Assembly: GCA_963663765.2 (NCBI GenBank)
Contig: CAXXUA010000005.1
Coordinates: 160,001-224,000 of the forward strand
Direction: 5' to 3'
Source: Candidatus Poribacteria bacterium
Lineage (GTDB): Bacteria > Poribacteria > WGA-4E > WGA-3G
Length of the DNA stretch: 64,000 bases
Below, piece by piece: positions 8,794-26,246 of this stretch. Position numbers and translations under genes: made by a program. How positions within the stretch are numbered: position 1 is the first letter of the stretch; the number at the start of each line of letters is the position of its first letter. The notes under the pieces were generated by a model. The model did no database searches, was not told the origin of the DNA, and was given only the letters and a program-made list of their open reading frames with translations.

Positions 8794-8992
8794 GTTTGCT
8801 ATAAGATTAACAGAAAGATGTGTTTTTGTCAAATTTTATTAATTCTTTAACTTCATTAATAAAATTTGCATTGATAATTTTCACGAAAACATGTTAACAT
8901 ATTGACTAACAAGCAATTTCTGTATGTTAAACATTCTTGAAAAAGTGTACCTGTTTCTTACCACTTTCCGCTTACATTTTCGGTATAATCCT

Positions 8993-11900
8993 ATGAAAAA
9001 AGTTTTGTCAGACTACATAAAATCAAAAGAAGATTTCGACAGATTCTGCAATCTATTTCTGAAAAAGGAAGTTTCCCCCTTCGTAAAAGTTTACGACGCG
9101 CCGGGACGCGATGGTGGAATTGACGCGGACCACACGGGTGTCTATAATAGAAAGGATGGCGTTTGGATATTCCAGTACAAATTCTATGATCCAACAATGG
9201 ATAGGGGGCGTGCCCGCAGCCAACTTATTTCTAAAATGAAAGGTGGCAAACGTGAAAAAGGTGAACTTGATAAGGCGGATGCGTTGCAGTGTGACCACTA
9301 TGTCCTCATGACCAACACTTTGCTTACTGCAGGAAACAAGCGTAAAATTGAGGACATTAAAAATGAGAGAGGATACACCTTTTCGTTAACCTGTTGGGAT
9401 GCTGAAGACCTCATCACGATGACCGATGAGTTTCCATACCTCTTAAATTCATTCAGAGATCCCCATCTACCAGTGTTTCTTTCTTGGCAGGATATGTTCA
9501 AAAATCAAATTGCAGGTAAACATCAACTGTTAAGATACGACTATGATACCTTCGGACGTGAGGATGAGATTAATCAATTTCAAACCTTTGTTCAAGATCC
9601 AGAGAAAAGACTATTCATGGTATACGGTAGCGGCGGCATTGGAAAAACCAAGCTCGCTATTGAGTTAGCAAAGGTAATTGAACGCAAACACACGGATTAT
9701 GAACCACTCTTTGTTCAGATGGCAGGTGACAGTTTTGAAAAGGCACTTGCAGATATTCCTCCCAATCGTAACTACATCTTTTTTGTAGATGACGCACATG
9801 ACTTTCTTGATAACCTCGGCGGTATCAGGATAGTATTGAATAGTCCCAAATACAGTAAATCCAAAGCGATCCTCATAACGCGAAAACCATTCAAAGCATT
9901 TTTAGAGAATAGTTTTCTAACCGCCTTACCGGATAACGCGGCTGATGAACTTGAAATTCAAAAACTTCCTCTGGAGAAAACGAAGGAATTTATCCGAACG
10001 TATACAGATATAACCGAAGGAACTCGTTTAGCAGGATTAGCACAGATTGGACGAGATACACCGCTACTTGCTGTTATGGTGATATATCTTTTCAAGAAAG
10101 GAGTCCATCTGAGTAATTTAATAACGCATGAGAAACGGATTGAACGCACCTTTGATGCCTATCTAAAGGACATCTTTAGCCAGCATCTACCAGAACCCAA
10201 CGAGCAGCACCGAAAATTGTTGAATTGGCTCAGTGGAATTGGGTCGATCGAAGCGGAAGATAGGCAAATATGCGAAAAATTGGCTGAAATCTTAAAAGTA
10301 GAACCCTATGAAATAGAGCAGTACCGCGATAATCTGATAAAATACGGTTTGCTTGTCCAATTTGGGCGAAAACAACGTGTTTTCCCTGATGCCCTCAGTG
10401 ACTATATTTTATGGAAGGCATGTTTCTTGTCAAGTGGTCACCACTCCTCCTTTCACAAAGATTTATTGAAGGAATTTTTACCACTTCTTCCTATTAAGGT
10501 AGTCATTAATCTCGCTCGTGTAGAAAACATTACTGGTGAAAAAAGTCTTCTTGATGAACACGTTGTGTTTCTTAAAGCTCAAGCAATGGATGGCAATAAT
10601 GCTGTTCGAGAGGAAATCTTGGAACAGATGGTAGGTATTAGTTATTTTCGACCAGATGACGCAACCGATATTTTCAATATTATCTTGGATAACCCTAAAG
10701 AAGACTACGTAAAAGATTATATAGGATGGACATCTACACGTACCCATCAAGACGTAGTAAAGAAGGTTGCTAAAGAAGCACAGAAGACAGTCAACACACT
10801 TTCTGGATTTATGAAGACGCTGAAAATTGTTCGGAAACTTCTGCTGATGGAAGGTTTGGAACTTCCTTACCAAGACTCACCACAAGAATTGCTAAAAAGG
10901 ATGGCAAGTTTTCACACAAGCAAACCCAGTGTATTTCAAATGAAAGCACTTGATGTGTTTGAAAAATGGAAAAAGAAAGATAAACCGGATTTAAGTTTGG
11001 CATTACTCAACGCTCTTGACACGCTTCTCGTGCTGGATTTCAGTGAAACCGTCAGTGATGGGAGTTCTTTGAAATTTGGTTGGCACCATTTAAAATATAC
11101 ACCTGAATTAATCCACCTCAGAGCGAAGGCAATTGACTTAATTGAGTATTCCCTGAGAAAGTCACAACATAGTATCGTCCGAACAGAGGCGGTAGGTTCA
11201 ATTAATCGAGCGATTAATCCTTTGGAGAGTCCATTTCGGCAGGGAATTGCAGAAGAGGAGCAGGTTCTATTACAAAAAGAACAGGATCGACTATTCAACA
11301 TATTGGCTGACCAAATCTCAACAGAAACCGATTTCACTGTTCTAAATGCAATAGATCAGTGTCTCCAAGGGTATGCAGAAAATAAGTATTTAGAAGGTTT
11401 TCCAAAAGAGAAGGCAGCAGAATTACTTGCAGAATTCCAAAAACATGAAAATTACGAAAGATACCTATTCTACCGTCAATTCACTGGAAAATTTCGTGAT
11501 CGGGACCTGAGTGAAAGTTCTGAACAAACACAGGTGTTCTTAAAAAAATATCTCAAGAAATACACACCCACGGAACTCTCAAAATTAATGCAGGAATGTA
11601 TAGTAGGTGCTGAAAAAGGGAAAGAATATCGTAGCACTAGAGACAAACTTTGGGCAGAAAAAGGGTGGAATCCGGGAACAGCGACATCACTACTTCGGTC
11701 AATCGGTGAACTTGACTCTTCTTACGGATCCGATTTATTGGATCAAATTGTTGCGTGGCAAACAGAGGAATCGCATTGTGCATCTGGATTGCTCAGTGGC
11801 ATTCGTTGTTCTGACAAAAGTAAAGCACGCGAAGTAACTCAATGCCTTTTGAATCAGGACACTATCTTTGCTAAACGCATCGTTGCAAGAAGTTATTTGT

Positions 11901-12919
11901 GGAAAAGCAAAACGGACCAGTTCTTTGAAAAAGCGGATCTTTCAATTTTAGAGCAATTGTCTAAAACTACGGACCCGCAATTACGTCTGTATATAGCCGA
12001 AAGTCTTCCGAATTTCTATATTGTGGATTTGAACACTTTCCTTGAAATATTGGTAAAACTATCAACTGATGATTCAACTAAGGTTTCGAGGCAAGTTATC
12101 CATACCCTAACCAGCAAAGAACTTAGATTCTCACCACAAAACCACTTGGAAAAATACAAGCAGGTGATGCTCAATTGTGTTCGTTTGGAACGTCTTGATT
12201 ATGAATCTGAGCAAGCACTTAGTGTTATCTTCAAACATGATCCGATCTGGGTAATTAAGTTTTTTGAGAAACGAATTGCTTATCAAGAAAGTGAGTCAAA
12301 CCGTTACAATTCATTTTCGGATCGTCCACCAGAGTTGTTTAAGTTTGATGTGGTCCCACATCGTCCGCATTATCTGTTTGAGGGTGTGGATTGGAATGAT
12401 GGAAACGCATTGGCAGCTTTGAGGCGCGTGAGAGATTGGGTTCTTACGTCCTCAAACCTCCTGAGATTTGAAGCACCCATCTTGCTTACATCTATGGTCG
12501 GTGGAAACGATCCGCGTAGTGATGAAATTAAAATTAATGCGGCAATGCAGAAACTCTTTGAAGAATGGATAGACTCAGAAGATTTAGAACTGATGAGAGA
12601 GGCTGCTTATCTAATGAGGGGATTCGACGCAGATGCCGTCTTTTATTCCCTTGCGGAATCGCTTGTGATAAAAAGCAATGGTGACAAACAGGTAGAAACT
12701 GGAATCACCGCTGCATTATATTCGGGAGTGTACTCAAAAAACATTGGGGAACCAGCACCACAACTTGAAAAACGTATCAAAGATCTTAAAGGACTGCAAG
12801 ATAGAACTCAGTCACGTCTTGTTAAACGATTTACTGAAGATCTGATAAATATGACAGAAAAGGATATTGAAAAACATTCACTTGAAGATGATGAATTTCT
12901 TGAAGGGGAAGGATGGTAA
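8993..12919 (+). CDS. Mrr-like restriction endonuclease + STAND NTPase + long helical sensor region (Avs/Avs4-like anti-phage NLR)
   Basis: N-term GRDGGID..QYK..YVLMTN..WD (PD-(D/E)xK Mrr-like); FGREDE; Walker A GSGGIGKT; Walker B FFVDDAH; sensor ILITR; GxP-like GRDTPLL; helical C-term. Start ATG 8993 preferred over the track start 8924. Confidence 0.8.
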   Translation: MKKVLSDYIKSKEDFDRFCNLFLKKEVSPFVKVYDAPGRDGGIDADHTGVYNRKDGVWIFQYKFYDPTMDRGRARSQLISKMKGGKREKGELDKADALQCDHYVLMTNTLLTAGNKRKIEDIKNERGYTFSLTCWDAEDLITMTDEFPYLLNSFRDPHLPVFLSWQDMFKNQIAGKHQLLRYDYDTFGREDEINQFQTFVQDPEKRLFMVYGSGGIGKTKLAIELAKVIERKHTDYEPLFVQMAGDSFEKALADIPPNRNYIFFVDDAHDFLDNLGGIRIVLNSPKYSKSKAILITRKPFKAFLENSFLTALPDNAADELEIQKLPLEKTKEFIRTYTDITEGTRLAGLAQIGRDTPLLAVMVIYLFKKGVHLSNLITHEKRIERTFDAYLKDIFSQHLPEPNEQHRKLLNWLSGIGSIEAEDRQICEKLAEILKVEPYEIEQYRDNLIKYGLLVQFGRKQRVFPDALSDYILWKACFLSSGHHSSFHKDLLKEFLPLLPIKVVINLARVENITGEKSLLDEHVVFLKAQAMDGNNAVREEILEQMVGISYFRPDDATDIFNIILDNPKEDYVKDYIGWTSTRTHQDVVKKVAKEAQKTVNTLSGFMKTLKIVRKLLLMEGLELPYQDSPQELLKRMASFHTSKPSVFQMKALDVFEKWKKKDKPDLSLALLNALDTLLVLDFSETVSDGSSLKFGWHHLKYTPELIHLRAKAIDLIEYSLRKSQHSIVRTEAVGSINRAINPLESPFRQGIAEEEQVLLQKEQDRLFNILADQISTETDFTVLNAIDQCLQGYAENKYLEGFPKEKAAELLAEFQKHENYERYLFYRQFTGKFRDRDLSESSEQTQVFLKKYLKKYTPTELSKLMQECIVGAEKGKEYRSTRDKLWAEKGWNPGTATSLLRSIGELDSSYGSDLLDQIVAWQTEESHCASGLLSGIRCSDKSKAREVTQCLLNQDTIFAKRIVARSYLWKSKTDQFFEKADLSILEQLSKTTDPQLRLYIAESLPNFYIVDLNTFLEILVKLSTDDSTKVSRQVIHTLTSKELRFSPQNHLEKYKQVMLNCVRLERLDYESEQALSVIFKHDPIWVIKFFEKRIAYQESESNRYNSFSDRPPELFKFDVVPHRPHYLFEGVDWNDGNALAALRRVRDWVLTSSNLLRFEAPILLTSMVGGNDPRSDEIKINAAMQKLFEEWIDSEDLELMREAAYLMRGFDADAVFYSLAESLVIKSNGDKQVETGITAALYSGVYSKNIGEPAPQLEKRIKDLKGLQDRTQSRLVKRFTEDLINMTEKDIEKHSLEDDEFLEGEGW

Positions 12920-13746
12920 AACTGACGAACGAAAACAGCCTTCTTCAGGAAATAAAAGACTTTTCTGATAATGGAAAATTTCGGGACTCTACAGCTTTAA
13001 CTTCTCAAACTAATGGATCAAAGTTAACGGCACAAAGTGCTGAAACTAAAATAAAGAAATTTATTCCGACAACGAGACAACGACTTAGTACTGCGAAATT
13101 TTATCTTGATGCGATGAAAAACATGAATTATGTTCCCTATCTTGGAAGTCAATCCTACTTCTCCGAAGAGCAAGGATCATTAATTGATTTTTCAGATAGC
13201 AACCTTCATGTTCAAATCAATTTGTTGAATCCTGAACCTTTTCCATTGATAGTTTTTTTGGTCTTGCAAGGTTTCTTTTCTAATCTCGTTAGTATAGAGG
13301 ACTGTATTGGAAAAATCATAAACATCGCTTACGACTTAATCCCATCGGATGAGAAGCCTTCTGACATAGTCAAAGCATTGGACAGTAAAATACCGAACGG
13401 GAATTTGATCAACCACTTATACAACTTTCGCGCGATAGGTCAAGATAGAAAGCCCGACAAGAAAGGCTCTCCATTCAATATCACCAGGGAAATCAGAAAC
13501 GAGTTAGTGCATGGCGACATAAAAGAAGTAGTAATTTTCCCAGAACTGACCCTCTTAGGTTTTTCATCGGACACCAATTTGTATTTCAACGACTTGTTCT
13601 TTCCAGAAAACACTCCACCCAAACACAATGATACCGAAATGATCGCTTTCTGTCAAAATGCTTATGACGAAACAGTCAACTTTGTTGATGAATGCTATAA
13701 GTTTATCCATGCTGATCTTCAACATAACGGTGTACTCCCGATTTAA
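12913..13746 (+). CDS. HEPN-domain protein (Cthe_2314-like), putative RNase
   Basis: Helical 'FFSNLVSIEDCIGKIINIAYDL' segment and RxxxxH motif RNELVH; start overlaps the STAND gene stop (ATGGTAA). Confidence 0.65.
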   Translation: MVKLTNENSLLQEIKDFSDNGKFRDSTALTSQTNGSKLTAQSAETKIKKFIPTTRQRLSTAKFYLDAMKNMNYVPYLGSQSYFSEEQGSLIDFSDSNLHVQINLLNPEPFPLIVFLVLQGFFSNLVSIEDCIGKIINIAYDLIPSDEKPSDIVKALDSKIPNGNLINHLYNFRAIGQDRKPDKKGSPFNITREIRNELVHGDIKEVVIFPELTLLGFSSDTNLYFNDLFFPENTPPKHNDTEMIAFCQNAYDETVNFVDECYKFIHADLQHNGVLPI

Positions 13747-16652: not shown

Positions 16653-18842
16653 CTAATCATGTGCCCGCGGCGTGAGAACTAATGTCCTACGATTCTCTTC
16701 AATTAAATATCGGTTGACAACATCGGCAACATCAGTCAAAGAGACATCAGCAAATGCTTTCGCAAGTTGCGACATGGTTTCACCATATTGATATTCTAAC
16801 ATTCCCCATGTTACACCAAGTTGGAGGAGCATGTGAGTCTCTGTTATATTTTCAGGTTTTTGCTGCATTAGTGTTGTTAAGTCCGGCGGTGCGCTGAGTT
16901 CTTTGGAGAGTGTCTGAGCAATCATAGGAACTTGTATGTTTTCATCAGATTGCTTCAACGGCTTCATCAGATGCTGAATCCGCCTTTTAACCATTTCTAT
17001 ATCTGCCCCTGGTTTGAGCGAAGCACTTATATAAAAGTATACTTGTTCAGGTGTGATGAGGTCAACACCACAGAAAACGTGCCCTGTTAATTCTTTCAAT
17101 TGGACATCCTGCATGAATGTTATCCGTAAGAGCACACTCGCTACGTAAAGTGCGGGGTAGTCTTCGTTTTCAGGACGAGGAATCTCGTAAGTTTCCATGT
17201 AATGCGTTACGTTGACATCCCAAGTCGCGTTTTGGTCTTTTGCTATATCTGGAGATGCTGTCGGTTTAGGAAATGTCTTCGCTGTTAAGTTGATAGATCC
17301 AAGATGTTTTTCCATTACATCTTTCAACGTTTCGGAGTCAACGCCGCCAACGACACACAAAAGGACGCGATCTGCTTGCACTAAATGCAGGTCACGATAT
17401 TCCTGTAATTCACCTAACTTTGCTGATTGCACATCACCACGCATTGATATATCGGTTTCACCATGCCGAAAAACCTGGTTCCACGCTGCGTGTGCTAACT
17501 TATGCGTTGTTAAGTTCTTTTCAATATAATCAAACCCGGCTAAGACGTTCGGGAGTGCTTCAGTGAGACTGTCTGCTGAGAACGGAAGTCCAGAAAGCCA
17601 TTTCGCATGAAGATCCAAGCCTTGAGTCCATGTATCCGTACTTCCCCTGAACTCCAAGCGTATATTGTCAGTCATTATCTCACCACTACTTGTCTTGTAG
17701 TCAAGGGGGCCGGTAGTGCGTGCTGATAGGTGCATTATTAGACTACTCCACTGTGTTTTTGCGTTTCCATCATTAACGAGTCCAAGAGGTAAATAACTAA
17801 AAATACCGACATCCTTGGAGTTTTCAACATGGAGATTAACAACTCGGATACCGTTGCTTAAAGTAAATCGTGTTACTATAGGGGGATCGTCAGAAGCTGT
17901 AATTATTGGGAAATCTTCGGAGGCATTAGGTGGAGAGACTTCCTCAGAAACCCGTGATCCAGTGCTGCTACTTTTGCCGAGAGCAGCCCGTCCAGCTTGA
18001 CTTCGCACATCCGGTTTTGTGTCAGATTCAAGTATGGTAAGTGCCTCTATAATTTCAATAGTGGGTTCGGATTGTGCCTCAAAACTATACGGTTTCTGAA
18101 ATCTGGTAAGATATTGATTACTCACACCGAACAGCAATATAATCAAAACCGTGGCTGTACTGAAAGCAACCCATGGGAGAAAAGGTTTTCCAGATGAAGA
18201 CGGAACCGGGTTTGTGTCAGCAACTTGCTGTATGATGTTCTCAAATATGCTATTAGGCAATTGCAAACCGCTAAGCGTATCGTTAATCAAGAGTTCTTCT
18301 GATGCTTTTAGACGTTCTCGTGCTCGCTTGAGTCGACTCGTAATAGTGTTCACTGACACACCCAAGAATTTGCCAATTTCTTTTGCCGTCATTTCACCGA
18401 GATAGTAGAGCGTCACCACAGTGCGTTCACTCTCTGGTAGTTTTTTCAGAAGTCGCTTAACGATTTCTTGACGATATTCAGTCGCTTCTGTCTCACGTTG
18501 TTCTAATACATAACGTTCATAAGTTAACTTATCTAACGTTTTCATAGATGAGTCTCCCAACGCTTGCGACTCTGGTTTTCGATTTCGTATCCAATCAATG
18601 CAAAGCCGATTAGCGATGACATATAGCCATCCAGCAAATTGATTGTGATCCTTGAGTATTGAAAGTTTCTTATATGCCTGAAGGAAGGTGTCTTGTGTAA
18701 TTTCTTCAGCATAATGAAAATCGCCGATCTTTCGCCATGCAAGGGCGTGAACACTCTTTTGGTATTTTTGAACTAAGGTGCCGAACGCCTCATCATCACC
18801 AGACAAGATGTTATGAATCAATTGAACGTCATCTTTTTCCAT
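16653..18842 (-). CDS. ECF sigma factor fused via a TM helix to an M16 peptidase-like domain with a degenerate Zn motif
   Basis: Sigma region 2 (AEEITQDTFL, WLYVIANR) and region 4 (LPESERTVVTLYY..VSVNTITSRL); TM FLPWVAFSTATVLIILLFGV; C-term homologous to 19034..20338. Confidence 0.88.
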   Translation of the reverse strand: MEKDDVQLIHNILSGDDEAFGTLVQKYQKSVHALAWRKIGDFHYAEEITQDTFLQAYKKLSILKDHNQFAGWLYVIANRLCIDWIRNRKPESQALGDSSMKTLDKLTYERYVLEQRETEATEYRQEIVKRLLKKLPESERTVVTLYYLGEMTAKEIGKFLGVSVNTITSRLKRARERLKASEELLINDTLSGLQLPNSIFENIIQQVADTNPVPSSSGKPFLPWVAFSTATVLIILLFGVSNQYLTRFQKPYSFEAQSEPTIEIIEALTILESDTKPDVRSQAGRAALGKSSSTGSRVSEEVSPPNASEDFPIITASDDPPIVTRFTLSNGIRVVNLHVENSKDVGIFSYLPLGLVNDGNAKTQWSSLIMHLSARTTGPLDYKTSSGEIMTDNIRLEFRGSTDTWTQGLDLHAKWLSGLPFSADSLTEALPNVLAGFDYIEKNLTTHKLAHAAWNQVFRHGETDISMRGDVQSAKLGELQEYRDLHLVQADRVLLCVVGGVDSETLKDVMEKHLGSINLTAKTFPKPTASPDIAKDQNATWDVNVTHYMETYEIPRPENEDYPALYVASVLLRITFMQDVQLKELTGHVFCGVDLITPEQVYFYISASLKPGADIEMVKRRIQHLMKPLKQSDENIQVPMIAQTLSKELSAPPDLTTLMQQKPENITETHMLLQLGVTWGMLEYQYGETMSQLAKAFADVSLTDVADVVNRYLIEENRRTLVLTPRAHD

Positions 18843-18885
18843 CAGAATCCTCCGTAATGAGACGCACAGACGACTGGATTTCTGT

Positions 18886-19022
18886 TATAGTAGATTTTAG
18901 AATTATTTTTACACTTTCAGGTGTAGGAGGGAACTCCGATTCCCGACTATCAAGGCGTTCAGTCGCGATTCGGAGATCGCTCCTATAGAACAAGTGTAAA
19001 CTTAATTGTATATTTCACTATA
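18886..19022. repeat. Inverted-end element wrapping a GTAG-REP-like palindrome
   Basis: TATAGTAGATTTTAGAATT ... TATTTCACTATA; internal GTAGGAGGGAACTCCGA...TCGGAGATCGCTCCTA. Confidence 0.6.
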
Positions 19023-19033
19023 ATACCTTTATA

Positions 19034-20338
19034 TCACTTTGACGCGTGCGGCGTGAGAACTAATGTCATCCGCTCCTCTTCGGTTAGATACCTATTGACA
19101 ACATCTGCGACATTCGCTGCAGAGACATCTGCAAAAGCACTCGCAAGCTGCGACAAGGTTTCACCATATTGGTATTCCACCATGCCCCAACTTACTCCAA
19201 GTTGAAGGAGCATGTGAGTCTCTGTGATATTCGCAGGTTTATATTGCTTTAACAGCATTATATCAGGCGGCGCGCTGAGTTCTGTAGAAAGGGACTGGGC
19301 AAACATAGCAACTTGCGTGTTGTTTTCTGGTTGCTTTAATGGGTTCATCAACTCTTGAATCCGCTGCTTAACCTTCAATATGTCTGTATTTGGTTTAAGT
19401 GAAGCACTGACGTATAGATATGTCTGTTCGGGAGTGATGAGGTCAACCCCACAAACAACATAACCTGTTAATTCTTTCAATTGGGCATCCTGCATGAATA
19501 CTAACCGTAAGAGCACACTCGCTACGTAAAGTGCGGGGTAGTCTTCGTTTTCAGGACTAGGAATCTCGAAAGTTTCCATGTAATGCGTTACGTTGACATC
19601 CCAAGTCACGTTTTGGTCTTTTGCTATATCTGGAGATGCTGTCGGTTTAGGAAATGTCTTCGCTGTTAAGTTGATAGATCCAAGATGTTTTTCCATTGCA
19701 TCTTTCAACGTTTCGGAGTCAACGCCGCCAACGACACACAAAAGGACGCGATCTGCTTGCACTAAATGTAAGTCGCGATATTCCTGTAATTCACCTAACT
19801 TTGCTGATTGCACATCACCACGCATTGATATATCGGTTTCACCATGCCGAAAAACCTGGTTCCACGCTGCGAAAGCCCATTTATGTGTTGCCAAATTTGC
19901 TTCAGTAAATTTAATTTCGGATAGTGCTCGCGGCAGTTCCTCTGCTAAACTTTTCTCTGTAAACGGTAATCCAGAAAGCCACTTTGCATGTAGTTCTAAT
20001 CCCTGCTTCCAATTCTCAGTATTACCCAGAAACTCCAATCGCATATTGTCAGCCATTGTCTCTGCACTACTTGTCTTATAATTTATGGGGCTGGTAGTTC
20101 GAATTGTAAGGTGCTCAATTAAATGACTCCACTGTGTCTTCGCTTTTCCATCAGCTACGAGTCCAAGAGGTAAATAACTGAAAATACCGACATCCGTGGA
20201 TTCTTCAACGTAGAGATTGACAACGCGGATGCCATTACTTAACGTAAAACGAGTTACTTTTGGTGGTGCGGAAAGTGCCAGAGAAAAATTGCCAAGAACG
20301 AGTAATACTACGAATGCATGTTTAATTCTGTTAATCAT
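19034..20338 (-). CDS. Secreted M16 (insulinase-like) zinc peptidase
   Basis: Signal peptide; FTLSNGIRVV start; inverted zincin motif HLIEH; downstream EELPRALSE. Confidence 0.8.
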   Translation of the reverse strand: MINRIKHAFVVLLVLGNFSLALSAPPKVTRFTLSNGIRVVNLYVEESTDVGIFSYLPLGLVADGKAKTQWSHLIEHLTIRTTSPINYKTSSAETMADNMRLEFLGNTENWKQGLELHAKWLSGLPFTEKSLAEELPRALSEIKFTEANLATHKWAFAAWNQVFRHGETDISMRGDVQSAKLGELQEYRDLHLVQADRVLLCVVGGVDSETLKDAMEKHLGSINLTAKTFPKPTASPDIAKDQNVTWDVNVTHYMETFEIPSPENEDYPALYVASVLLRLVFMQDAQLKELTGYVVCGVDLITPEQTYLYVSASLKPNTDILKVKQRIQELMNPLKQPENNTQVAMFAQSLSTELSAPPDIMLLKQYKPANITETHMLLQLGVSWGMVEYQYGETLSQLASAFADVSAANVADVVNRYLTEEERMTLVLTPHASK

Positions 20339-20500
20339 CTTTTGCCTCCAAATGTTAGATCTTCAGATATTGAACGAAAATCGTTAGAACGATACGATTG
20401 TTTTTACCATTTGATTATCTAAAGACGTAATTTTGGGGCAGAAAACGTGCATAATTTGAAAAAAAAATGAATTTCATCTATTTTTTTCGTCATTATCCTA

Positions 20501-25205: not shown

Positions 25206-26246
25206 TTAATCATCATCGTGATCATCATCATCGTCGTCATCATCGTCATCGTCATCATCGTCATCATCATCGTCATCGTCGTCATCATCATCATCGTCAT
25301 CGTCGTCATCATCGTCATCATCGTCGTCATCATCGTCATCGTCGTCATCATCGTCATTATCGTCGTCATCATCGTCATCATCGTCATCATCGTCGTCGTC
25401 ATCGTCGTCATCGTCATCATCATCATAACGAAGGTTAGGAAAATCTGCTGGGTCTTGTTGATTTATCCAATCTTTGATAAGTTGAATTTGTGCAGTAGTC
25501 AACGGAGGACCATCTGGTGGCATTCTTCCTGACACGATTTCTTCAATAATATCACTCTCGTTTGCATTGCCAGGGACAAATACAGATTCATTGTCGTCAT
25601 CACCTTCAAGAAAGGATTGATATGTGCTGAAATCCATGTTGTCAGGACCGCCAGCAACATGACAGCCAGCATAGGCACATCTTGATTTCAAAATAGGTAA
25701 AACATTCTGGTTAAAGGATGTTTCTGGCTCTGATGTATTTCCAGTTGGTGGTTGCATTGGTTGTTGTGATGGCTGCCCAGGCGTCGTTGCGGTTGTCTGT
25801 TTATTTATCCAATCTCGGAATAGTTGGATTTGTGCATTAGTCAATGGATTACCGCCGATTGGCATTCTACCAGAAACAATTTCATCTATAATGGTACTGC
25901 TTGTATCATCTCCAGGAACGTAGACAGAACCGTTATCTCCACCAGCAATGAAACTTTGGTAATTGCTGAAATCTAAGTTCAGAGGTCCTCCAGCAACATG
26001 GCAGCCTGTAAATGCACAACTTGCTGTTAGTATTGGTAAAAGGTTTTGATCAAATTCCGCTTTGCTTTCTGCATTTTCAACACTGACCATATTTTGATTT
26101 TCTGTATCAGAACCTGGATCAGATTCAGAAGAAGAATCGGTAGGTTCAACGACATTAGTAATCTGTATGTCACATCCAAACAAGCAAAACATTAAACCTA
26201 AAGTAAGCTGAAAAACCAGTTGTAAACGCGTTAACATAAATGACAC
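25206..26246 (-). CDS. Lipoprotein with two planctomycete-type cytochrome c domains (CX4CH) and a ~70-residue poly-Asp tail
   Basis: Lipobox LFGC; CAFTGCH and CAYAGCH each followed by GRMP and WI; terminal Asp tract. Confidence 0.82.
   Translation of the reverse strand: MSFMLTRLQLVFQLTLGLMFCLFGCDIQITNVVEPTDSSSESDPGSDTENQNMVSVENAESKAEFDQNLLPILTASCAFTGCHVAGGPLNLDFSNYQSFIAGGDNGSVYVPGDDTSSTIIDEIVSGRMPIGGNPLTNAQIQLFRDWINKQTTATTPGQPSQQPMQPPTGNTSEPETSFNQNVLPILKSRCAYAGCHVAGGPDNMDFSTYQSFLEGDDDNESVFVPGNANESDIIEEIVSGRMPPDGPPLTTAQIQLIKDWINQQDPADFPNLRYDDDDDDDDDDDDDDDDDDDDDDNDDDDDDDDDDDDDDDDDDDDDDDDDDDDDDDDDDDDDDDDDDDDDHDDD
25209..25424 (-). repeat. GAY trinucleotide tract encoding poly-Asp (72 codons including one Asn and one His)
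   Basis: (TCA/TCG)n on the + strand, with mixed GAT/GAC codons. Confidence 0.95.

Follow-up and report, generated by a model that had tools for sequence, protein, structure and literature searches.

Why should a transcription factor carry, on the far side of a membrane helix, a catalytically dead copy of the peptidase encoded next to it? This question is raised by two adjoining genes on the minus strand of a 64,000-nucleotide stretch of DNA, referred to herein as the window, from the lineage Ca. Poribacteria. An initial annotation described them as a secreted M16 peptidase and an ECF sigma factor fused to an inactive duplicate of that enzyme, and proposed that the dead domain binds peptide and controls the active enzyme gene, a reading that was partly supported as a whole in the present study. 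Both open reading frames were recovered where they had been placed, that of a stand-alone M16B peptidase subunit with an intact active-site motif at 19034..20338 (434 aa) and that of an ECF sigma–transmembrane (TM)–pseudo-M16B fusion at 16653..18842 (729 aa). No paper on a sigma–TM–pseudo-M16B architecture was found in the literature.

The locus and its distribution

The 434-aa M16B gene comes first and is followed by the fusion of sigma2/sigma4, a TM segment, and an M16B domain, and the pair is flanked by genes for a luciferase-like monooxygenase and a TIM-barrel isomerase. The M16 domains of the two proteins share 79% identity over 408 aa, and each was the sole BLASTP match of the other among the open reading frames of the same genome. 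This order was present at 37 loci in 36 genomes, with the fused frame being broken in one, and in 6 of 44 genomes the fusion was retained with the adjoining peptidase deleted or broken. The palindromic repeat that separates the two genes in the window (18886..19022, no strand assigned) had 100-260 copies in the genome by blastn and is regarded as lying outside the system; the intergenic gap in most relatives is just 24-66 nt. Scans for sigma-70 promoters and terminators gave chance-level counts (11 vs 9.5 and 5 vs 3.4), and one possible RNA run, which covered only scraps, has no bearing on expression either way. A search of the ESM Atlas regarding a Gly-rich accessory protein returned hypothetical clusters only.

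The stand-alone peptidase and the fusion protein

Regarding the stand-alone protein, aa 1-24 (20267..20338, minus strand) form a likely Sec signal peptide with a basic N-region and a hydrophobic core, as judged by residue pattern without a dedicated predictor, and the corresponding segment ends in small residues of the A-x-A type in most homologs. The motifs HLIEH (H72-L-I-E75-H76 with E75 as the catalytic residue, 20111..20125) and EELPRALSE (E133-E134-LPRALS-E141 with E141 as the distal Zn ligand, 19916..19942) were both assigned by alignment and are present as previously annotated, which gives this protein the HxxEH plus distal Glu of M16B peptidases. H72, E75, H76, and E141 are invariant in an alignment of 91 sequences with identity down to 21%, and E141 aligns with the second Glu of ERQVVAEE in the H. 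pylori M16B protease 5EUF; the spacing from HxxEH to the distal Glu is 64 rather than about 75 because of a gap relative to 5EUF. As judged by alignment, the second domain, in which M16B peptidases have an R/Y pair or a glycine-rich loop, showed no Arg or Tyr that was invariant or nearly so across these 91 sequences. The AlphaFold model (pLDDT 97, pTM 0.94) is a two-domain half-clamshell of about 50 kDa, and its top Foldseek matches were M16B subunits (E 1e-22 to 1e-18), with TM scores of 0.70-0.74 for 5EUF, 0.73 for 3AMI, and 0.70 for 3HDI. The motif and the modelled fold suggest that this protein, which is likely secreted, is an active zinc peptidase.

The fusion begins with a sigma2 to sigma4 region (aa 23-179, 18306..18776, minus strand), in which Pfam recognized Sigma70_r2 (23-89) and Sigma70_r4/r4_2 (126-179) in addition to Peptidase_M16_C further on, and TIGR02937 scored 96 bits against a cut-off of 42.9. 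The sigma-related Pfam models were r2, r4, r4_2, and ECF only, namely, the ECF composition of sigma2 and sigma4 without regions 1.2 and 3. The one hydrophobic segment, at aa 222-240 (18123..18179; Kyte-Doolittle 19-residue mean 2.15), is a predicted single TM helix; by hydropathy, a single chain would thus comprise the sigma factor, the helix, and an extracytoplasmic domain. Most sigma fusions in this genome share this helix together with the segment behind it. Considering ATG only, there is no internal start after sigma4, as Met is absent from aa 151-370. The outer domain (aa 320-729, 16656..17885) reads SLIMH in place of HxxEH (aa 367-371, 17730..17744) and EALPNVLAG, with the distal Glu replaced by Gly (aa 428-436, 17535..17561), at the matching positions, as the initial annotation had stated. 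Modelling of the full-length fusion from a shallow alignment gave no informative structure (pLDDT 38), and the identity of the fused domain to its well-modelled paralog suggests that it keeps the M16 fold.

Loss of the active site under constraint

Among the best 120 of 325 homologous matches together with the query fusion, which define the homolog counts in this paragraph, the catalytic Glu was present in 71 of 71 stand-alone proteins and in none of 50 fused ones, and the corresponding figures in the genome loci were 44/44 and 0/43; therefore, fused orthologs that retain HxxEH, which would have spoken against the earlier proposal, were not encountered. These counts are not independent because the loss of the Glu was probably a single ancestral event. 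The claim that the fused copy has lost all three residues applies to the present fusion; its relatives all lack the catalytic Glu, but the first His is kept in 37/50 and the distal Glu in 12/50, which makes the loss of either of these two lineage-specific. The commonest state in the homologs and in the genome loci is Glu to Asn with the distal Glu replaced by Gln.

Relaxed selection on the fused domain, which had also been named as a possible objection, was not apparent: the median pairwise dN/dS was 0.176 for fused and 0.180 for stand-alone copies at a median dS near 0.9, and invariant positions numbered 86 and 79, respectively. The positions at which the fused copies have lost constraint are concentrated around the Zn site, at 67-82 and 133-141. 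With its catalytic Glu lost, its fold presumably kept, and purifying selection acting on it, the fused domain fits the description of an M16 pseudopeptidase.

Gene conversion between the two copies

A tract of 408 nt in the stand-alone copy (aa 156-292, 19464..19871, minus strand) differs from its match in the fused copy (17083..17490, minus strand) by 11 mismatches, with flanks of 73% and 76% identity, and an overlapping tract was also observed in a second genome, G024. In 36 pairs, the within-genome excess of synonymous identity was 0.004 in the Zn-site region, 0.056 at aa 156-292, and 0.019 at aa 293-430; conversion was thus found downstream of the Zn-site region and not within it. This scarcity near the Zn site could reflect the higher divergence there instead of selection. 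The pair may nevertheless represent a clean natural case of a functional site bounding gene conversion.

The near-identical tract, together with the one frameshifted fusion and several deletion remnants, might point to an assembly artefact or to a fused domain that arose recently by duplication and is decaying neutrally. This explanation, to which we attach next to no credence, is refuted by selection and distribution data, namely, a dN/dS of 0.18 at this level of synonymous divergence, the occurrence of the pair in two genera, the overlapping tract in the second genome, and the coverage of the unique parts of both genes by contigs from three public runs.

A promoter motif that accompanies the sigma factor

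Upstream of 20338, where the initial annotation had suggested looking for an ECF promoter, one heading the operon was predicted from motif conservation at 20424..20453 (minus strand), 113 nt ahead of the peptidase start codon. It has the form TGCAC-N19-CGTC, with a -35 element TGCAC(GT) from 20451, a 19-nt gap, and a -10 element CGTC ending at 20424. An ECF-type motif heads all 37 paired loci, at the standard place in 36 and further upstream in the 37th. The strict pattern, which was derived from the paired loci themselves and is physically linked to them, occurred in 42 of the 44 family genomes that have the fusion and in 5 of the 56 that lack it, and a reversed control gave 0/151.

In two natural swaps, the variant of the motif goes with the sigma factor and not with the outer domain: in genome G026, the orthologous sigma factor bears a WD40 domain and retains the TGCACGTTT form, and in genome G114, the dead M16 domain is attached to a different sigma factor (56% identical) and the form is TGCACC. 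A distant intact M16 gene that is unlinked to the pair has the motif at the head of its operon in 3/3 genomes with the fusion and 0/9 without it; these three genomes count once because they belong to one clade. Genome-wide, bare TGCAC-N19-CGTC was not enriched (26 matches vs 22-43 at other spacings), and the same pattern plus two more 5' bases gave 8 matches vs 0-4. For the remaining 24 long fusions, the upstream motif was found within 400 nt in just 4 cases. The view that the sigma factor controls the peptidase gene has thereby gained comparative support at the level of sequence, with a conserved motif upstream of the peptidase tracking the sigma factor, and the predicted private promoter may serve as a direct reporter for this uncultured sponge-associated lineage.

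Sigma fusions with other outer domains

This genome encodes 25 long ECF fusions, the M16-fused sigma factor among them, and the nine others that were scanned carry WD40, BNR, lectin, FtsZ, or unnamed domains. The orthologous sigma factor bears WD40 (G026) or LRR-GHL15 (G091) instead of M16, which shows that the outer domain can be exchanged. We considered whether the outer domain of every fusion copies a neighbouring gene and rejected this, as few have the neighbour as their best match; the majority fall into a WD40 family with about 200 members or into a BNR family.

These exchanges, and the proposal that planctomycete ECFs gained extensions by the capture of adjacent genes (available text of PMC7671368), would also fit a chassis of sigma factor and TM helix that captured the adjacent gene copy as a folded, protease-resistant cap reporting envelope or folding stress, with catalysis being lost only since it was unneeded or harmful on a regulator. 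The Zn-site residues do decay diversely, with no convergence on a new motif among the best 120 of 325 matches. We consider this explanation unlikely, since the fused domain is as constrained as its intact paralog, pairing with that paralog is kept in 37 loci, and 10 of the 21 non-poribacterial loci of this M16 subfamily have an ECF gene nearby (a raw count, uncorrected for background).

Other phyla have the intact domain fused to ECF-multiTM proteins and Ser/Thr kinases or encoded directly behind them; seven independent non-poribacterial sigma-multiTM-M16 fusions and two kinase-M16 fusions keep HxxEH, and a dead site is therefore not required for coupling M16 to a signalling protein. The idea that a sigma fusion always goes with a dead site was rejected on the same grounds. 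The fused design, which was correctly observed in the initial annotation, is less special than it had appeared, considering the 25 fusions, the WD40 and LRR swaps, and the active-site fusions elsewhere. These arrangements might also place the intact peptidase upstream in the signal chain, or make it the protease of the first cut, rather than the output. This appears very unlikely, because M16 enzymes cut peptides that fit their chamber (30-70 residues for M16A/C, as given in the available text of PMC12731061) and not folded membrane proteins, and because the joint in several distant fusions looks like a signal peptide and so points to run-through of the genes and to cleavage.

Proposed mechanism

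We favour, with somewhat more confidence than doubt, the reading that the fusion is a one-protein switch, in which the dead M16B domain senses a peptide outside and the sigma factor transcribes its own operon. The outer domain would be periplasmic and may dimerize into a clamshell, either as two dead copies or in combination with the intact subunit, and bind, without cutting it, a peptide that the enzyme destroys. Binding would expose the fusion to Prc/RseP-type proteases, and the sigma factor, after its probable proteolytic release, would drive transcription of its own operon, in which the likely secreted peptidase comes first, closing a feedback loop that would end once the peptidase has removed the signal. 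The ligand, the release step, and the activity of the enzyme are all putative in this scheme. The genome has two M50 and three S41 genes, as do most control genomes. Inducing peptides, if found, would in addition identify what is cleaved by an uncharacterised M16B subfamily whose genes lie near ECF genes in several phyla.

M16B enzymes act as two halves (PMC12731061), and according to the available text of PMC12731061 and PMC11266112, most M16B proteases pair an active HxxEH subunit with an inactive homolog in a heterodimer, frequently with the two genes in one operon; examples of such heterodimers are MPP alpha/beta, SPH2681/2682, TTHA1264/1265, and AlbE/F. The modelled subunit fold is the same here, and the dead domain might accordingly be the alpha-like half of a heterodimer with the secreted active subunit, the sigma factor reading the assembly or closure of a membrane-anchored clamshell, or the supply of the active subunit, and not a peptide on the dead domain. 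The top structural matches of the stand-alone model are such subunits, the genome has no other close M16 partner, and conversion keeps the middles of both copies alike. We regard this alternative as rather improbable: the fusion is intact in the six genomes in which the neighbouring peptidase is lost or broken, and most of the distant members of the subfamily have an intact site with no dead partner seen in their loci, which fits a homodimer. Unlike the known heterodimers, which assemble, the present copies are at most putative partners, and the inactive one, which is 79% identical to the active one and undergoes gene conversion with it, is joined to a transcription factor. A complex prediction for the two M16 domains scored 0.00 in two runs, with controls not folded, and is of no use either way. 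The subunit model overlaps with the one-protein switch.

A combined scheme is entertained as possible, with considerable doubt. A peptide receptor would have been made by duplicating and killing the cell's own peptidase, the dead half on the sigma factor would pair with the secreted live half, and the closing of the clamshell, driven by substrate, would be read directly as transcription; selection would act against conversions that restore the catalytic site and tolerate those in other places, and the whole would be a module of a sigma family with exchangeable ectodomains and private promoters.

Comparison with known systems

By analogy, the system is best read as an IutY-like, membrane-tethered, self-regulating sigma factor with a pseudo-peptidase sensor. 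IutY of Pseudomonas putida (ECF243), a sigma/anti-sigma hybrid, likewise combines a cytosolic ECF, a membrane anchor, and a periplasmic domain (available text of PMC5411451 and PMC8999054) and is released by Prc and RseP (PMC5411451), and proteolytic release would be the likely route for the fusion as well. In contrast, IutY requires an outer-membrane receptor and a siderophore (PMC5411451, PMC8999054), whereas the fusion carries as its outer domain a pseudo-peptidase of 410 aa that arose as a copy of its neighbour. A FecR-type anti-sigma domain with a linked outer-membrane receptor was not found at the present locus, where the outer domain is M16 and the flanking genes are of other kinds. In DdvA-DdvS of Myxococcus xanthus, control of an ECF also runs through a periplasmic domain that has a protease fold but an incomplete active site, and RseP proteolysis has been proposed; this system differs in its separate anti-sigma protein and caspase-like CHAT fold, and an adjoining intact paralog is not mentioned in the available text of PMC11506125.

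A pseudo-enzyme with a protease fold, derived by copying the very gene under control, would be a new input to membrane-tethered ECF sigma factors. The sensor of BlaR1 is akin to class D beta-lactamases and, to our knowledge, is no recent copy of blaZ. As described in the available text of PMC9834060, BlaR1-BlaZ of Staphylococcus aureus has an enzyme-like outer sensor that binds the substrate class of the secreted enzyme it induces, as may the fusion; BlaR1 differs in signalling via its own cytoplasmic metalloprotease and a repressor.

Regarding the 2021 ECF classification, the term Poribacteria is absent from its main text and from the available portion of its supplement. ECF57 of Planctomycetes (available text of PMC7826278) resembles the fusion in its TM-containing C-terminal extension. 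Many paralogs in the present genome carry WD40 propellers, and 13/19 have a sigma4 Cys. The fusion belongs to another phylum and lacks the conserved Cys pair in sigma2 and sigma4: Cys81 is present, its sigma4 contains no Cys, and a sigma4 Cys at the position of the paralogs was found in 0/50 fused homologs. An M16 extension for ECF57 is not described in the available portion of the supplement of PMC7826278. ECF263 also has a TM-containing extension, and the promoter predicted for it, with TGCAC(A/C) as the -35 and CGTC as the -10 element, is near the operon motif, with TGCAC and CGTC matching and the sixth base being G instead of A/C. In the available text of PMC7826278, ECF263 is mostly proteobacterial, has a putative anti-sigma factor at -1, and contains five or seven helices but lacks a large outer domain, unlike the fusion with its single helix. 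The multi-TM ECFs beside distant M16 genes resemble ECF263 more.

Two genes and a proposed mechanism

The two minus-strand open reading frames and both motif pairs described in the initial annotation were recovered when the sequence was re-read. The 729-aa fusion (16653..18842, minus strand) comprises sigma2 (aa 23-89) and sigma4 (aa 126-179) domains, a single hydrophobic helix (aa 222-240), and an M16 domain (aa 320-729). This domain shares 79% identity with the 434-aa peptidase encoded upstream (19034..20338, minus strand), in agreement with the high similarity noted between the copies. The fusion is probably a membrane-tethered ECF sigma factor. An inserted palindromic intergenic repeat, present in 100-260 copies in the genome, lies between both genes (18886-19022).

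We liken the fusion to IutY, the P. putida sigma/anti-sigma hybrid, which excerpts of PMC5411451 and PMC8999054 present as a tethered sigma factor. An IutY-like mechanism is the reading that we consider somewhat probable from this analysis: the dead clamshell half would bind the class of peptides that the enzyme would degrade, Prc/RseP-type proteolysis would release the fusion, and the freed sigma factor would induce its own operon. Genes for Prc/RseP-type proteases are present.

The predicted structure of the mature stand-alone peptidase (pLDDT 97) matched the solved M16B subunits 5EUF, 3EOQ, 3AMI, and 3HDI; its H72, E75, H76, and E141 did not vary over 91 aligned sequences, and in the alignment to 5EUF, E141 fell on a Glu where the third ligand would be expected. 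Subunit pairing is standard M16B biology (PMC12731061 and PMC11266112). The dead domain may pair with the live subunit, a reading that overlaps the IutY-like one and that we regard as rather unlikely.

Loss of the active site in fused copies

Among the best 120 of 325 matches plus the query fusion, HxxEH and E141 were kept in all short (54/54) and C-terminally extended (17/17) stand-alone proteins, whereas none of the 50 fusions retained the catalytic Glu, which was replaced by Asn in 38 and Met in 12. The first His and the distal Glu, both lost in the host-genome copy as the initial annotation had described, persisted in 37/50 and 12/50 fusions, respectively. The genome loci divided in the same manner (44/44 stand-alone versus 0/43 fused genes, excluding partial and frameshifted ones). 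In a FastTree tree of aa 31-155, fused and stand-alone genes separated with none misplaced (support 0.894). A quick IQ-TREE tree with six ligand codons removed needed two changes but is compatible with a single origin. The Glu loss was probably a single ancestral event (HLINH/Gln), followed by further decay to forms such as NLIMR and the SLIMH of the host genome.

Six loci (L043, L051, L054, L055, L056, and L067) encode 684-aa stand-alone peptidases with an additional C-terminal domain of ~250 aa, which, when tested on L054, gave a weak LolA-like match (E 6e-4, below the cut-off).

Selection and gene conversion

The dN/dS comparison suggested earlier revealed no relaxation, with pairwise NG86 medians of 0.176 for the fused domain and 0.180 for the stand-alone enzyme (pairs with dS 0.05-1.5, which are not independent). 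Positions constrained in the intact copy only were clustered at 67-82 and 133-141. Neutral decay of the fused domain is excluded. The system is real, conserved, and under selection.

In the host genome, both copies share a 408-nt tract (aa 156-292) with 11 mismatches, and the regions on either side of it are 73% and 76% identical. Genome G024 has a tract that overlaps this one. Contigs of three public runs merged the tract into a single piece, as a real repeat would be expected to do. Over 36 within-genome pairs, the excess of synonymous identity was 0.004 for aa 31-155, 0.056 for aa 156-292, and 0.019 for aa 293-430, and trees of the latter two regions forced at least two type changes; therefore, exchange extends into the two downstream regions but not into that of the Zn site, where higher divergence could also restrict it.

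Gene order and predicted promoter

Close matches were restricted to one family among 151 genomes of the phylum. The peptidase preceded the fusion at 37 loci in 36 genomes, with a gap of 24-200 nt in 35. Six genomes carried an intact fusion with the neighboring peptidase lost or broken, and four with DNA extending past the gene carried the peptidase without the fusion.

An ECF promoter had been anticipated upstream of 20338, and a candidate was found at 20453-20424, consisting of a T-tract, TGCACGTTT, and then CGTC 19 nt past TGCAC. The promoter predicted for group ECF263 (PMC7826278) is close to this motif. The motif heads 36 of the 37 paired loci and lies further upstream in the 37th; in 14 it is 700-900 nt upstream, and the eight of these that were translated all have a gene for a Gly-rich membrane protein inserted, which is truncated in one of them. 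The strict pattern occurred in 42/44 family genomes with the fusion, 5/56 without it, and 2/51 outside the family (reversed control, 0/151), counts that were tallied by hand and arise partly by construction because the pattern was derived from these same loci.

Two domain swaps are more telling than these counts: in genome G026, the orthologous sigma (81% identical) is fused to WD40, locus and motif both being unchanged, and in G114, a paralogous sigma (56%) bears the dead M16 domain and the motif takes the TGCACC form. In G091, the orthologous sigma is joined to LRR-GHL15, adjoining an intact peptidase. Natural swaps of the outer domain favor the view that the dead domain is a generic stress lid, which we nevertheless judge improbable. 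The motif also headed the operon of an unlinked intact M16 gene (~24% identity) in 3/3 genomes with the fusion, all of one clade, and in 0/9 without it. It was absent from three of the four peptidase-only loci and kept in G072. Some paired loci, as described above, have a Gly-rich membrane-protein gene in addition.

This optional operon gene codes for a membrane protein of ~190 aa that has GxxAxG repeats rich in Gly and a weak GLTT match. It lies between the promoter and the peptidase or fusion at L046, L049, L051, L052, L064, L069, L074, L075, L076, and L080. Repeats of this kind also occur in three distant fusions (P0137, P0190, and P0242), where they separate the sigma or kinase from the M16 domain. 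By eye, the peptidase 5' leader (20339-20375) is similar to the 3' end of genes for small membrane proteins located ahead of M16 genes at the sigma-less loci L082 and L135, which suggests that the peptidase derived from such an operon.

Sigma fusions in general

The host genome has 25 long ECF fusions, and the nine others scanned carried WD40, BNR, lectin, FtsZ, or unnamed domains. FtsZ/tubulin-fused ECF sigma factors were found in genome G000 at C5:603526-604746, C6:276016-277800, and C13:379590-381374; two of these were scanned, and BLAST showed the third to be similar.

A profile search returned 495 relatives (50%-identity representatives); when the two query proteins were added to the best 150, the active site was intact in 116, broken in seven, and not covered in 29. 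Outside Poribacteria, seven distinct sigma-multiTM-M16 fusions kept HxxEH; two Ser/Thr kinase-M16 fusions kept it as well. The six non-poribacterial sigma domains compared were 24-31% identical to the host sigma and these fusions are, therefore, of separate origin. Ten of 21 non-poribacterial loci had an ECF gene (three fused, four directly upstream, and three nearby), a raw count in which several loci are short. The intact-site fusions and nearby ECF genes indicate that this M16B subfamily has repeatedly been tied to signaling proteins. Among the relatives compared, a dead copy combined with a live copy was seen in Poribacteria only.

In Planctomycetota and Verrucomicrobiota, an intact member of the same subfamily directly follows an ECF gene or is fused to it (L094, L096, L101, L103, L105, L114, and L122); these ECFs mostly have 5-8 predicted TM helices, and several fusions show a signal peptide-like joint. 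P0190 and P0242 each consist of a Ser/Thr kinase, a membrane segment, and an intact M16B domain, one being named from a Planctomycetota genome.

Judged from search listings, our literature searches found no published description of the Poribacteria sigma-M16 system, no paper pairing ECF with M16 or insulinase, and no description of the system among papers on pseudoenzyme sensors of sigma factors. The portions of the PMC7826278 main text and supplement available contain no mention of M16 or Poribacteria, and the supplement tables may hold more. PMC7671368, PMC11506125, and PMC9834060 were also used for comparison, in excerpt.

Other genes in the window

The gene at 8924-12919 (plus strand) encodes a protein of 1331 aa that gave weak matches to STAND-NTPase and HEAT; it overlaps a 277-aa gene without a Pfam match (12913-13746, plus strand), and the two possibly form a defense pair. 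The gene at 25206-26246 (minus strand) encodes planctomycete cytochrome c (PSCyt1) domains and a C-terminal run of ~70 residues, mostly Asp.
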